Origin: Escherichia coli
GTDB lineage: Bacteria > Pseudomonadota > Gammaproteobacteria > Enterobacterales > Enterobacteriaceae
Assembly (NCBI RefSeq): GCF_048403405.1
Contig: NZ_CP183129.1
DNA: 64,000 nt
Strand: one strand, 5' to 3'
Position 1 is the first letter of the stretch. Each line of letters starts with the position of its first letter. The notes below the pieces were generated by a model. It was given only the letters and a program-made list of their open reading frames with translations. It did not search any database and was not told the DNA's origin. The position numbers were made by a program, and so were the translations under genes. Shown here piece by piece: positions 51,834 to 56,245 of this stretch.

Positions 51834-52625
51834 ATGGCTAACGCAGATCTGGATAAACAGCCTGATTCTGTATCTTCCGTGCTGAAAGTTTTTGGCATTT
51901 TGCAGGCGCTGGGTGAAGAGCGCGAAATAGGGATAACCGAGCTGTCGCAGCGCGTCATGATGTCAAAAAGCACCGTTTATCGCTTTTTACAGACCATGAA
52001 AACCTTAGGTTATGTGGCGCAGGAAGGGGAGTCGGAGAAATATTCCCTGACCCTGAAATTGTTTGAACTGGGCGCTCGCGCGTTACAAAACGTCGATTTA
52101 ATTCGTAGCGCAGATATCCAGATGCGTGAGATTTCCCGCCTGACCAAAGAAACTATCCACCTCGGCGCACTGGACGAAGACAGTATTGTTTACATTCACA
52201 AAATTGACTCTATGTACAATTTGCGCATGTATTCACGGATTGGGCGTCGTAATCCGCTGTACAGCACCGCAATTGGTAAGGTACTGCTGGCATGGCGCGA
52301 TCGCGATGAAGTGAAGCAAATTCTTGAGGGCGTGGAGTATAAACGCAGTACCGAACGGACCATCACCAGTACAGAATCGTTATTACCCGTTCTGGACCAG
52401 GTGCGCGAGCAGGGGTATGGCGAAGATAACGAAGAGCAGGAAGAAGGACTGCGTTGCATTGCGGTTCCGGTATTTGATCGTTTTGGCGTGGTCATTGCCG
52501 GTCTGAGCATCTCCTTCCCGACGTTGCGTTTCTCCGAAGAGCGTTTACAGGAATATGTCGCAATGTTGCATACCGCGGCGCGCAAAATTTCTGCCCAAAT
52601 GGGTTATCACGACTATCCATTCTGA
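51834..52625 (+). CDS. kdgR: IclR-family regulator KdgR
   Basis: 263 aa; HTH then IclR effector domain. Confidence 0.9.
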   Translation: MANADLDKQPDSVSSVLKVFGILQALGEEREIGITELSQRVMMSKSTVYRFLQTMKTLGYVAQEGESEKYSLTLKLFELGARALQNVDLIRSADIQMREISRLTKETIHLGALDEDSIVYIHKIDSMYNLRMYSRIGRRNPLYSTAIGKVLLAWRDRDEVKQILEGVEYKRSTERTITSTESLLPVLDQVREQGYGEDNEEQEEGLRCIAVPVFDRFGVVIAGLSISFPTLRFSEERLQEYVAMLHTAARKISAQMGYHDYPF

Positions 52626-52768: not shown

Positions 52769-53008
52769 TTAACCATTATCGACCACAATATTGCTTTTAC
52801 GTAACAACGGGCAATCTGTTATCCCCAGAAAACCACTTTTAGTGTGCAGGTATTGTACCGTGCTGGTGCCTCTGGCGGTCAGATAGGTACATTGCAAACC
52901 TAATCCCGCGGCATTCTCTTTGCTTCCAATCAAAACGCCATATCCGCTGAGTAATAATCCTATCCATACCAGTGCTATCAGCATAACTGTGCGAATGATG
53001 AATCGCAT
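52769..53008 (-). CDS. yobH: Small membrane protein YobH
   Basis: 79 aa with N-terminal TM helix. Confidence 0.75.
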   Translation of the reverse strand: MRFIIRTVMLIALVWIGLLLSGYGVLIGSKENAAGLGLQCTYLTARGTSTVQYLHTKSGFLGITDCPLLRKSNIVVDNG

Positions 53009-53166
53009 TACAACCTCTTCTCTTTTTATGTTCGCTTAATCGTAGCGGCAATATGCGCTGAAGCAAGCGACTCATTCTGAAAAAGCACGAATATCGACAT
53101 AGTTAGGCGCTGTTTAACTAACGCATGCTAGTTTAATGACATAAGGTAGGTGAAACGGAGATTGGA

Positions 53167-53310
53167 GTGAAAAAGTTTCGATGGGTCGTTCTGGTTGTCG
53201 TGGTGTTGGCTTGCTTGCTGCTTTGGGCGCAGGTATTCAACATGATGTGCGATCAGGATGTACAATTTTTCAGCGGAATTTGTGCCATTAACCAGTTTAT
53301 CCCGTGGTGA
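53167..53310 (+). CDS. mgrB: PhoQ-inhibiting small membrane protein MgrB
   Basis: 47 codons from GTG ([47 protein letters not shown]); below the ORF-track length threshold. Confidence 0.85.
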
Positions 53311-53384
53311 TATCATTTTTTCAGCACTAGATTTTCTTCCTCTCCAGCAGTGGTAGAATAGCGCCTCTACTCAGAGGTGGTGAA

Positions 53385-53672
53385 ATGAACGAAGTTGTAA
53401 ATTCAGGCGTGATGAACATTGCGTCTTTGGTTGTATCGGTGGTGGTTCTTCTTATCGGGCTCATCTTGTGGTTTTTTATCAATCGTGCCAGTTCACGGAC
53501 TAACGAACAGATTGAACTGCTTGAGGCGTTGCTGGATCAGCAAAAACGTCAAAATGCTCTGTTACGTCGTTTGTGCGAAGCAAACGAACCTGAGAAAGCA
53601 GATAAAAAGACCGTTGAGAGTCAAAAATCGGTTGAAGACGAAGATATTATTCGTCTGGTCGCCGAACGATAA
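53385..53672 (+). CDS. yebO: Small membrane protein YebO
   Basis: 95 aa; N-terminal TM helix. Confidence 0.8.
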   Translation: MNEVVNSGVMNIASLVVSVVVLLIGLILWFFINRASSRTNEQIELLEALLDQQKRQNALLRRLCEANEPEKADKKTVESQKSVEDEDIIRLVAER

Positions 53673-54341
53673 TCCTTCCTCAATCTTGAGTAACCCCGTC
53701 GTTGAAGGGTTACTCAATTCATCCTGATTATACGCACTGCCATGGTGCAACTGCTTCAAATTAAAACTCTGGTCTGACTTCAAATAATTATCATATTATT
53801 TATTTGCGTAACGGGATATCAGAAAAAGATATTTAGCCCATTAATTTATTAGGATGTTTACATCGGATTTGTGATTAAGTGTGGTATTATTTATTAGCGA
53901 AACGTTTCTCTCTTGATTTTTTTGCGCATTCATCAATTTTTCTTATTTTAAATTTACAATACCTTTGGCGATTGACTTCTCTTTGGGGTGATCGATAGCC
54001 GTTAACTGACTGTTTTATGAGAAAAAGTGATATAACTTTTTATTCATTGCATAGCAGAAAATGTGATATTGCACGCACTATGTAATAACTTCTCCCACTG
54101 GCCTGGAACAACTGAACTTATTGAACTATGTTAGAAAATACGTCAGTTTAAGTATCTGCCTGAACTGGCAAGGTTAAGCACAATGATATATCGGCGCGTA
54201 TTCCGTTGCATAAGTGTGCAAAAAAAGTGGAAGACGTATCGAGATTTGTGCGTCTGATCGAGACATGTTTAAAAATGGCTTGCCATAATTAACGTTGTAT
54301 GTGATAACAGATTTCGGGTTAAACGAGGTACAGTTCTGTTT

Positions 54342-54485
54342 ATGTGTGGCATTTTCAGTAAAGAAGTCCTGAGTAAACACGTTGACGTTGAATACCGCTT
54401 CTCTGCCGAGCCTTATATTGGTGCCTCATGCAGTAATGTGTCAGTTTTATCTATGTTATGCCTGCGGGCGAAGAAAACAATCTAA
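54342..54485 (+). CDS. yobF: Small protein YobF (upstream of cspC)
   Basis: 47 codons ([33 protein letters not shown]...); read manually, not in ORF track. Confidence 0.75.
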
Positions 54486-54497
54486 GGAATTTTTCAA

Positions 54498-54707
54498 ATG
54501 GCAAAGATTAAAGGTCAGGTTAAGTGGTTCAACGAGTCTAAAGGTTTTGGCTTCATTACTCCGGCTGATGGCAGCAAAGACGTGTTCGTACACTTCTCTG
54601 CTATCCAGGGTAATGGTTTCAAAACTCTGGCTGAAGGTCAGAACGTTGAGTTCGAAATTCAGGACGGTCAGAAAGGTCCGGCAGCTGTTAACGTAACAGC
54701 TATCTGA
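54498..54707 (+). CDS. cspC: Cold-shock-domain protein CspC
   Basis: 69 aa; RNP1-like KGFGFI and VFVHF. Confidence 0.95.
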
Positions 54708-54753
54708 TCGAATCCACTGATCTGAAGTGTGAATACGCTTCAATCTCGCTATA

Positions 54754-54780
54754 AAGCCTCGTCGAATGCGAGGCTTTTTA
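54754..54780 (+). terminator. Intrinsic terminator after cspC
   Basis: GCCTCG-N6-GCGAGGC followed by TTTTT. Confidence 0.65.
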
Positions 54781-54872
54781 CTTTGCTTTATCTTCGCTCC
54801 AGTCGTTCGGATATTTGCCCGCCGCGTGATTCGCGTTACACTTGCGGCCTTTAGTATCCTGCCGGAGTTGTC

Positions 54873-55682
54873 ATGTCGTTTTCCTGTCCACTTTGCCATC
54901 AGCCTCTTTCGCGTGAAAAAAACAGCTATATCTGTCCCCAGCGACATCAGTTTGATATGGCGAAAGAAGGGTATGTCAATCTGCTGCCCGTTCAGCATAA
55001 ACGGTCTCGTGATCCGGGCGACAGCGCGGAAATGATGCAAGCACGCCGCGCATTCTTAGATGCCGGACATTATCAGCCGCTGCGTGATGCAATTGTCGCC
55101 CAACTGCGGGAACGGCTTGATGAAAAGGCCACAGCGGTGCTGGATATTGGCTGTGGTGAAGGGTATTACACACACGCATTTGCCGATGCGCTGCCCGAAA
55201 TCACCACGTTTGGCCTGGATGTCTCGAAGGTAGCGATAAAAGCGGCGGCGAAACGCTATCCGCAGGTCACTTTTTGTGTTGCTTCCAGCCACCGTTTGCC
55301 GTTTTCCGATACCAGTATGGACGCCATAATACGTATTTACGCGCCGTGTAAAGCAGAAGAATTAGCGCGAGTAGTGAAGCCTGGCGGTTGGGTCATTACT
55401 GCCACGCCGGGACCGCGACATTTGATGGAGCTGAAGGGGCTGATTTACAATGAAGTACATCTTCATGCACCTCATGCAGAACAACTGGAAGGTTTTACAT
55501 TACAGCAGAGTGCTGAGTTGTGTTATCCGATGCGTCTTCGCAGTGACGAAGCCGTCGCATTATTGCAGATGACGCCGTTTGCCTGGCGTGCGAAGTCAGA
55601 AGTCTGGCAAACACTGGCAGCAAAAGAAGTGTTCGACTGCCAGACGGACTTTAATATTCACCTCTGGCAGCGTTCTTATTAA
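54873..55682 (+). CDS. rlmA: 23S rRNA m1G745 methyltransferase
   Basis: 269 aa; N-terminal Cys4 zinc motif (CPLC..CPQRH), SAM motif [10 protein letters not shown]. Confidence 0.9.
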
Positions 55683-56245
55683 CCGTGGAAGTGCGTCCAG
55701 AGGATCTGGACGCCGATGCCGATCAGCACCAGCCCGCCGAGAATTTCCGCTTTTTTCCCAATAATTGAGCCGATAAAGCGACCAACCATCATCCCTAATG
55801 TCGACATAATCAAGGTTGCACAACCAATGGCCAATGCGGTCGCGATAATGTTGACCTGCAGGAAAGCAAGACCAACACCCACAGCCATGGCATCCAGGCT
55901 GGTGGCAATCGCGGTGGTTACCAGTAGCCAGAAACCGTGTCGACGGCGCGGCTCTTCATCTTCATCATCTGCGCCACGAAAACCCTCAATAATCATTCGC
56001 CCGCCGAGGAATATCAGCAGCACAAACGCAATCCAGTGGTTCCATTCAAGGACAAACCGGCTGGCTAACATGCCCATTCCCCAGCCGATCAGCGGCGTCA
56101 GGGTTTCGACAGCACCAAAAATAAGGCCGGTTCGCAACGCTTCAGAAAATTTCGGTTTATGGAGGGTGGCACCTTTACCGATTGATGCAGCAAATGCATC
56201 CATCGACATACCAAACGCAAGAAGAACAGTAGCAGTGATATTCAT
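55679..56245 (-). CDS. mntP: Manganese efflux pump MntP
   Basis: 188 aa from [25 protein letters not shown] (track ORF extends to 56299). Confidence 0.9.

Follow-up and report, generated by a model that had tools for sequence, protein, structure and literature searches.

Several enterobacterial mRNAs begin with a short translated open reading frame (ORF), examples being mgtL in the mgtA leader, tnaC and pheL. Another kind of leader is the 5′ untranslated region (UTR) of cspA, with a length of about 160 nt; cspC is not known to be cold-induced. The locus considered here carries two short genes, mgrB and, just upstream of cspC, yobF. It lies in a stretch of 64 000 nucleotides of Escherichia coli (contig NZ_CP183129.1, assembly GCF_048403405.1), called the window below, within which the span 53167–54485 runs from the first base of mgrB to the last base of the yobF stop codon.

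A good deal has been published on yobF. It is treated as forming an operon with cspC (PMC8599858, PMC13162491), and three promoters have been described, yobFp1, yobFp2 and the intragenic cspCp8 inside yobF (PMC13162491). Repression of yobF-cspC by OxyS, through pairing near the yobF Shine-Dalgarno (SD) sequence, was shown experimentally, and a yobF::sfgfp translational fusion is active (PMC10965054). On one and the same mRNA, the translation efficiencies of yobF and cspC are more than 100-fold apart (10.1101/109264). In Salmonella, the phenotype of a yobF deletion is a polar effect on cspC (PMC8599858). As for the protein, PMC11429745 reports its detection by epitope tagging and ribosome profiling and cites its post-transcriptional induction by heat. 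The same study describes post-transcriptional induction by low Mg2+, fractionation of His-tagged YobF with membranes (western blot) and a lower growth yield in low Mg2+ upon deletion of yobF, which was rescued in trans by wild-type yobF and not by an ATG-to-TAA mutant (PMC11429745).

The initial annotation of the window had presented mgrB (GTG start, 47 codons) and yobF (47 codons, next to cspC) as genes missed by the ORF track. Re-translation, the test which that annotation had itself proposed, gave an intact ORF for each, with neither frameshift nor premature stop, and yobF stops 12 nt short of the cspC ATG. The ORF listing was rerun at a minimum of 20 amino acids and at the default cut-off of 60; both genes are missing from the default listing because each encodes only 47 amino acids. 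ORFs of at least 20 amino acids overlapping the surrounding 3.8 kb number 69. Open frames of 47 codons are common by chance here and identification therefore rests on homology. YobF matches Pfam PF10736 (DUF2527/DUF2627) with 105 bits against a cut-off of 25, its residues 1–38 covering the entire model (1–38 of 38), and its protein and DNA are 100% identical to those of K-12 b1824; the equivalent data for MgrB are given below. In a strain identical to the window, the Prokaryotic Genome Annotation Pipeline (PGAP) of RefSeq annotates both genes. It is thus confirmed that mgrB and yobF were already known, and the observation as first recorded is ordinary. Very probably, then, we are dealing with two known genes hidden by a length cut-off, yobF being the translated first cistron in a constrained cspC leader. 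The opinion that both are known small proteins, and a matter of annotation completeness only, holds for the two genes as such, but the label ‘known small protein’ masks the fact that yobF is conserved at the nucleotide level.

Nucleotide-level conservation of yobF

A protein search with YobF returned 74 relatives, all belonging to PF10736, spread across the Enterobacterales and 38–56 amino acids long. Their first ∼26 residues are near-invariant, and their tails resemble frame-shifted readings of the same DNA (‘...CLRAKKTI’ versus ‘...MPAGE...NGKD’), the 56-residue forms running through the cspC start codon. For comparison at the DNA level, orthologous DNA from eight other genera was aligned with the window and, to obtain a larger sample, one genome per species was scanned for the most conserved 21-mer of yobF. 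The latter procedure gave at least 120 loci, from Escherichia, Salmonella, Citrobacter, Klebsiella, Enterobacter, Kosakonia, Cedecea, Kluyvera, Buttiauxella, Yersinia, Serratia, Rahnella, Rouxiella, Brenneria, Hafnia and others. The cspC gene of the same genomes served as a control for divergence. In all the 111 usable species loci among the matches listed, a co-oriented csp ATG follows the yobF ATG at a distance of 155–162 nt. A separate observation concerns Apirhabdus apintestini (CP138906.1), whose cspC orthologue has a 1-nt deletion in its coding sequence (∼1360–1570 of the retrieved locus) and where no cold-shock gene is called; either the gene is a pseudogene or the assembly is in error.

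In the nine-genus alignment, cspC varies at every third base, whereas codons 1–26 of yobF and about 60 nt upstream are nearly invariant everywhere. Counted by codon position, variable columns amount to 8/6/3 of 26 for yobF and to 3/1/45 of 69 for cspC. Third positions vary in 3/26 codons of this part of yobF versus 45/69 of cspC (Fisher p=2.2e-6), and the opposite is seen for first and second positions taken together, with 14/52 versus 4/138 (p=3.9e-6). The pattern is the same in the larger sample, where 98 canonical loci were analysed for yobF without the codons used for ascertainment, i.e. with 19 codons left: in these 98 listed species, variable columns are 8/9/5 of 19 for yobF and 5/3/52 of 69 for cspC, and the distinct variant codons divide into 4 synonymous and 26 non-synonymous for yobF as against 74 and 10 for cspC (Fisher p=1.3e-13). 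At 0.13, the synonymous fraction of yobF cannot be told apart from the 0.19 expected under neutrality. Even four-fold degenerate sites, e.g. that of GGC (Gly3), are invariant in the 98 canonical loci among the matches listed. The substitution tests thus gave no sign of purifying selection on the amino acids of YobF. An overlapping gene that would keep the synonymous sites frozen was considered and rejected: none of the phases shows a 3-base periodicity (8/9/5), frames 1 and 2 close within 5–10 codons, and the antisense ORFs are short or enter unconserved DNA.

The conservation profile does not respect the limits of the gene. Over 107 species, bins of 15 nt have a mean identity to E. coli of 0.76–0.99 from 54267 on, through promoter, 5′ UTR, yobF and cspC; it jumps at about 54267, and the block is continuous into cspC. 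The 5′ half of yobF (0.90–0.99) is conserved at least as well as the cspC coding sequence. Because the codon pattern is non-coding, the synonymous fraction neutral and the profile continuous with the leader, we conclude that the deep conservation of the yobF family is of a nucleotide-level, non-coding type. No description of such conservation for yobF was found in the searchable literature, which does not cover the founding small-protein papers.

The frame itself is kept in most species, but not in all. ATG, frame and at least 37 codons are intact in 98/109 anchorable loci among the matches listed, with 38 codons in 46 species, 47 in 30, 43 in 13 and 56 in 7. In 11/109 species of the same list, frame, start or length is disrupted with the nucleotides conserved; these are three Kosakonia species, Enterobacter sp. 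Bisph1, two Superficieibacter species, Trabulsiella, Klebsiella indica, Intestinirhabdus, Tenebrionibacter and strain LSJC7. Kosakonia oryziphila and Enterobacter sp. Bisph1 have lost 1 nt, so that SLNTASLPNL takes the place of the ‘invariant’ block inside a 55-residue frame, an out-of-frame reading found in four species among the matches listed. A 1-nt deletion leaves 32 amino acids in the two Superficieibacter species, a 2-nt deletion leaves 15 in Kosakonia cowanii and K. arachidis, and a 1-nt insertion leaves 16 in strain LSJC7. Trabulsiella, Klebsiella indica and Intestinirhabdus have a stop at codon 24–25, and in Tenebrionibacter ATT replaces ATG. Assembly errors are an unlikely source of the indels, because sister species (Kosakonia, Superficieibacter) share them.

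Possible reasons for the constraint

What the constrained block does is a matter on which we may only offer graded opinions. The one that we hold, with slightly better than even confidence, is that yobF is a translated upstream ORF in a cis-regulatory cspC leader which would act as RNA, and that its peptide is not the target of selection across the order. The constraint on promoter, 5′ UTR and first ∼26 codons would then stem from something that the leader does in cis, at the RNA or possibly the DNA level, and translation of yobF would act mainly in cis. By targeting the ribosome-binding site of the translated yobF, OxyS would lower CspC as well as YobF; more generally, regulation exerted at this site, by OxyS and probably by heat and Mg2+, would be passed on to the operon. 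Any function of the peptide would be lineage-specific, possibly co-opted in E. coli, and would not be the reason why the family is conserved; a role of the protein in E. coli may exist, given its published translation and trans-complementation. There is a broader form of the same idea, for which the odds look about equal either way, namely that the DUF2527 family is conserved across Enterobacterales mainly as a promoter-proximal, non-coding element of about 230 nt in the cspC leader. Its companion claim, that the peptide sequence is free to evolve and can be dispensed with in Kosakonia, Superficieibacter, Trabulsiella, Klebsiella indica, Intestinirhabdus and Tenebrionibacter, we likewise regard as a balanced question.

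Some of the signals within the block can be named. Nucleotides 14–27 of OxyS are Watson-Crick complementary to the window at 13/14 positions of the pairing site, a result equalled by 3/300 shuffles in an ungapped search; RNAduplex applied to full-length OxyS and the leader did no better than with shuffles and is uninformative. The TTGCCA and GATAAC of the putative promoter both fall in blocks conserved across the 9 genera and the 107 species, and transcription would, judging from these motifs, start near 54315; a promoter scan reports instead GAGACA-18-CATAAT at 54260–54289. Together, OxyS site, putative promoter and cspC ribosome-binding region cover part of the ∼150 constrained nucleotides.

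Evidence for a structured RNA was sought in the same region. In an RNAalifold model, the yobF SD, GAGGUAC (54325–54331), pairs with a GUGCCUC of the yobF frame (54421–54427), the two enclosing a long hairpin with imperfect pairing. A stable conserved structure in the leader may exist but is supported neither by covariation nor by fold energy, as the numbers given below indicate. A smaller hairpin, GCC-UGCG-GGC, occurs at the 3′ end of yobF: its 3 stem pairs are kept in 93–94 of 94 sequences while the loop varies, and the Rfam cspA model aligns it with the GCCgaaaGGC hairpin of cspA. No compensatory change was seen for it in the 94 sequences and its fold z-score is -0.34, so that its status as a conserved hairpin is only suggestive.

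Several points weigh against the cis-acting interpretation. In the RNAalifold models, compensatory pairs number 0/38 in the nine genera and 1 in the 94 sequences, which equals the slid-partner controls, though this test is weak because an invariant sequence leaves little to covary. The minimum free energies of the E. coli leader are no better than those of shuffles (z-scores of +1.15, +0.12, -0.21, -0.34 and +0.07). The species set was found via an exact 21-mer inside yobF or via protein homology, a procedure favouring conserved copies. The ATG is retained in 108/109 species among the matches listed, and in the variable 3′ region frame 0 is open in 82/85 distinct sequences versus 71/85 for frame 1. 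OxyS pairing accounts for only ∼14 of the ∼150 constrained nucleotides. Lastly, the protein has been detected by tagging, its induction by heat and by low Mg2+ is post-transcriptional, and the rescue in trans requires an intact start codon, which speaks in favour of a diffusible product being made in E. coli (PMC11429745).

The last points are also the best ones in favour of YobF being a conventional small membrane protein whose amino-acid sequence is selected, with synonymous sites frozen by overlapping short signals, i.e. the OxyS site, the internal promoter cspCp8 and the cspC ribosome-binding region. To the detection of YobF, the membrane association of its His-tagged form and the start-codon-dependent complementation (PMC11429745) one may add the very existence of a Pfam family, with ATG and an in-frame length of at least 37 codons preserved in the proportions given above. 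We nevertheless consider this explanation rather unlikely. The ratio of 4 synonymous to 26 non-synonymous variant codons is neutral, without 3-base periodicity in any frame, and the ‘invariant’ block is frameshifted, stopped early or deprived of its ATG in 11 species among the matches listed, while the carboxyl-terminal tail shifts in frame and length (38, 43, 47 and 56 codons). Nor did the Kyte-Doolittle scale reveal a conserved hydrophobic stretch of transmembrane grade in the E. coli protein or in the 38-residue forms, whose peak 15-residue means are 1.47 and 0.57, respectively, against 3.29 for MgrB. Finally, most of the ∼150 constrained nucleotides lie outside the short signals known so far.

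If the constraint is not on the protein, it could be on the DNA, with dense promoter and transcription-factor sites (yobFp1, yobFp2, cspCp8, nucleoid proteins) reaching into yobF. The conserved block does start exactly at the promoter, the upstream intergenic region is long and AT-rich, and one of the three reported promoters lies inside yobF (PMC13162491). But near-invariance persists for more than 100 nt past the presumed transcription start, far beyond the length of a promoter, and the peak of conservation (0.96–0.99) is in the transcribed 5′ UTR and the first codons, which makes a purely DNA-level cause distinctly unlikely. More unlikely still is the proposal that the yobF stretch is a thermoregulatory 5′ UTR of the cspA type, with an open frame due to chance and a temperature-dependent structural switch acting on translation. 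The Rfam cspA thermoregulator model (RF01766, positions 1–428) matches 54322–54782 on the + strand with 139.7 bits, well over the gathering score of 78; the cspC leader, at about 183 nt, is close in length to that of cspA, and a GCC...GGC hairpin precedes the SD in both. The post-transcriptional heat induction of YobF, as cited in PMC11429745, would also fit. However, the score derives from the cspC coding sequence and the terminator, with posterior probabilities of only ∼0.3–0.6 in the 5′ part, and Smith-Waterman alignments of the cspC leader with the leaders of cspA, cspB, cspG, cspI and cspE are at chance level (z from -0.7 to +0.6), the weak matches to cspH and cspF being SD-like AAGGAATTTTT strings only. 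Since leader-leader alignment is at chance, homology to a cspA-type 5′ UTR was rejected; in addition, folding is as in shuffles and covariation is absent from the leader.

mgrB, neighbouring features and significance

MgrB raises no such difficulty. It matches Pfam PF13998 with 66.3 bits (cut-off 27) and the NCBIfam equivalog NF007635 with 89.9 bits (cut-off 40) over residues 1–47 of 47, and both protein and DNA, GTG start included, are 100% identical to K-12 b1826 (YobG). The identical K-12 protein is a 47-residue inner-membrane peptide, regulated by PhoP, which binds and represses PhoQ and so provides negative feedback (PMC2789325); family match and identity thus bear out the function of PhoQ feedback inhibitor assigned in the initial annotation. 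Alanine scanning identified 11 important residues (10.1101/438515), and MgrB of the window carries them all: K2, K3, W20, Q22, F24, C28, D31, F34, G37, C39 and W47. The two lysines are N-terminal, W20 belongs to the single transmembrane helix, and C28, D31, F34, G37, C39 and W47 are on the periplasmic side. The sequence was recovered from 56 other species whose yobF-locus DNA happened to include mgrB. The GTG start is kept in 51/57 sequences (E. coli plus these species), the others having a form longer by one codon. Minor-allele frequencies by codon position are 0.168/0.066/0.329 (50 distinct coding sequences), and within just three genera the variable columns are 14/2/31 of 47: this substitution pattern is the normal protein-coding signature of purifying selection on the protein.

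Upstream of mgrB, a direct repeat resembling a PhoP box has 2 mismatches to (T/G)GTTTA-N5-(T/G)GTTTA. Scanning the window at this stringency gave 23 matches versus 15.3 ± 4.0 expected in shuffles, which is near chance, so that a PhoP box called from the consensus scan alone was rejected. The candidate was retained on account of its cross-species conservation, which for the half-sites GTTA and GGTTTA is at least 90% among 50 distinct sequences of other species. In the multi-species upstream alignment, the TG.TA...T pattern of the putative extended -10 and the cGGAGa of the SD also reach at least 90%. These motifs, at the 12-nt spacing expected for a PhoP box that replaces a -35 element, suggest a promoter made of a PhoP-type box and an extended -10, the dependence on PhoP being taken from PMC2789325. 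PhoP would activate mgrB, and the single-pass inner-membrane product would bind and inhibit the sensor kinase PhoQ, closing a negative feedback loop. Coordinates of these and other features are collected in Table 1.

Table 1. Genes and sequence elements around mgrB and yobF in the window
Feature	Position	Strand	Remarks
kdgR	51834–52625	+	
yobH	52769–53008	-	mgrB lies between yobH and yebO, as in K-12
PhoP-box-like direct repeat TAGTTA-GGCGC-TGTTTA	53100–53116	+	upstream of mgrB
putative extended -10 of mgrB, TGcTAGTTT	53126–53134	+	12 nt after the PhoP-box-like repeat
mgrB SD, GGAG	53157–53160	+	6 nt before GTG
mgrB	53167–53310	+	GTG start, 47 codons plus stop; PhoQ kinase inhibitor
yebO	53385–53672	+	95 amino acids; Pfam YebO, 124.5 bits; between mgrB and yobF; no part of the initial claim
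core of the constrained block	54267–54430	+	promoter, 5′ UTR and yobF codons 1 to ∼29
putative yobF-cspC promoter	54280–54308	+	-35 TTGCCA (54280–54285), 17-nt spacer, TGn plus -10 GATAAC (54300–54308)
alternative E. coli candidate for yobF-cspC, TGcCATAAT	ends 54289	+	
OxyS pairing site GGGUUAAACGAGGU	54316–54329	+	covers the yobF SD GAGG (54325–54328)
yobF	54342–54485	+	ATG start, 47 codons plus stop; first cistron/upstream ORF of the yobF-cspC mRNA
small hairpin GCC-UGCG-GGC	54460–54469	+	3′ end of yobF, ∼30 nt before the cspC ATG
cspC	54498–54707	+	69 amino acids; NCBIfam CspC subfamily, 170.2 bits; internal coding control for yobF
intrinsic terminator of the yobF-cspC operon	54753–54786	+	10-pair stem followed by a T run
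rlmA	54873–55682	+	
mntP	55679–56245	-	

The 2.5 kb around mgrB-yobF find matches in 5,425/5,426 complete E. coli genomes, with 100% identity in several human isolates and ∼99% in K-12, from which the strain of the window differs only in flanking intergenic DNA and at synonymous yebO sites; the + strand of the window corresponds to the minus strand of K-12. E. coli FDAARGOS_1279 (NZ_CP069957.1) is the same as the window except for an IS1 between yobF and cspC (2112–2809 of the retrieved locus); the IS1 shortens the yobF coding sequence to 141 nt and separates cspC from the leader. This fits the hotspot of insertion sequences reported at yobF-cspC in ageing colonies (PMC13162491). The name of cspC is itself a source of confusion: RefSeq E. 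coli genomes, annotated by PGAP, call the gene cspE and K-12 calls it cspC. The best NCBIfam match is to the CspC subfamily (145 bits for CspE), hence an automated naming inconsistency. The 3′ end of the Rfam cspA model also matches the terminator behind cspC.

The mgrB-yebO-yobF-cspC neighbourhood is widely conserved in Enterobacteriaceae, with mgrB no more than a few kb away from yobF-cspC in at least 56 species; in Serratia, Rouxiella, Cronobacter and Atlantibacter, a gene of the metallo-beta-lactamase fold stands upstream of yobF instead. Low Mg2+ induces both mgrB and yobF, and activation of PhoP in Salmonella needs CspC (PMC11429745, PMC8599858); these shared ties to low Mg2+ and PhoP may or may not relate to the linkage of the genes. 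The spacer between yebO and yobF (53673–54341) is an AT-rich intergenic region of 669 bp, of similar length in Klebsiella and Citrobacter (610–635 bp). Strong cross-species conservation is confined to its last ∼75 bp (from ∼54267), with weaker conserved islands at 54102–54146 and 54207–54266. Directly 3′ of the yebO stop codon lies a perfect 11-bp inverted repeat, TTGAGTAACCC...GGGTTACTCAA (53684–53714, +), which is without a T run and was not called by the terminator scan. Farther downstream, the convergent 3′ ends of rlmA and mntP overlap by 4 nt (55679–55682), as in K-12, and the mntP leader contains a match to the Mn2+ riboswitch aptamer yybP-ykoY (RF00080; 56376–56472, - strand, 41.9 bits, E=6e-9), slightly under the gathering score of 45; this is a known element of E. 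coli mntP.

As first recorded, the observation on mgrB and yobF matters for annotation hygiene only. Here, an ORF track based on length alone misleads, since a 60-residue cut-off hides two real, medically relevant small genes (loss of mgrB leads to colistin resistance in Klebsiella and to trimethoprim tolerance in E. coli) and lists spurious longer frames that overlap them, i.e. 53128–53316 (-, 62 amino acids), 54174–54380 (-, 68 amino acids) and 54382–54696 (+, 104 amino acids). The one element that specialists might find surprising is that yobF, a textbook ‘validated small protein’, has a non-coding conservation signature, which calls for caution in taking amino-acid conservation of very short leader ORFs as proof of protein function. 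The signature also points to an uncharacterised control region of CspC, a global RNA chaperone linked to RpoS, to PhoP activation and to adaptive evolution in ageing colonies. Were the family indeed conserved mainly as a non-coding element, the cspC leader would represent a cis-regulatory element, RNA or DNA, that is new to the literature and controls this chaperone.

Comparison with known systems

With respect to its K-12 counterpart b1826, MgrB of the window shows no detectable difference: protein, DNA, GTG start, functional residues, position between yobH and yebO, and putative PhoP-type promoter architecture are all the same. Likewise, YobF does not differ in sequence from b1824, and the operon organisation, including the 12 nt that separate yobF from cspC, is unchanged.

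The comparison with the cspA 5′ UTR (RF01766) is more ambiguous. Both genes have a long leader, the match of the cspC region exceeds the gathering score of the model, and upstream of the SD stands a small GC hairpin. But unlike the cspA leader, that of cspC holds a translated ORF of 47 codons; similarity between the leaders is at chance and no stable or alternative fold was found. The likeness to mgtL, tnaC and pheL is of another kind: yobF is a short translated 5′ ORF, the main known function belongs to the downstream gene, regulation takes place at the ribosome-binding site of the ORF itself (by OxyS), and conservation is at the nucleotide level. It departs from these leaders in that yobF ends 12 nt before cspC rather than inside a terminator, with no attenuator or alternative hairpins identified, and it departs from a purely cis-acting leader peptide in that trans-complementation by YobF has been reported (PMC11429745). 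To the description of the YobF family (PF10736), what is added here is conservation without a protein-coding signature.

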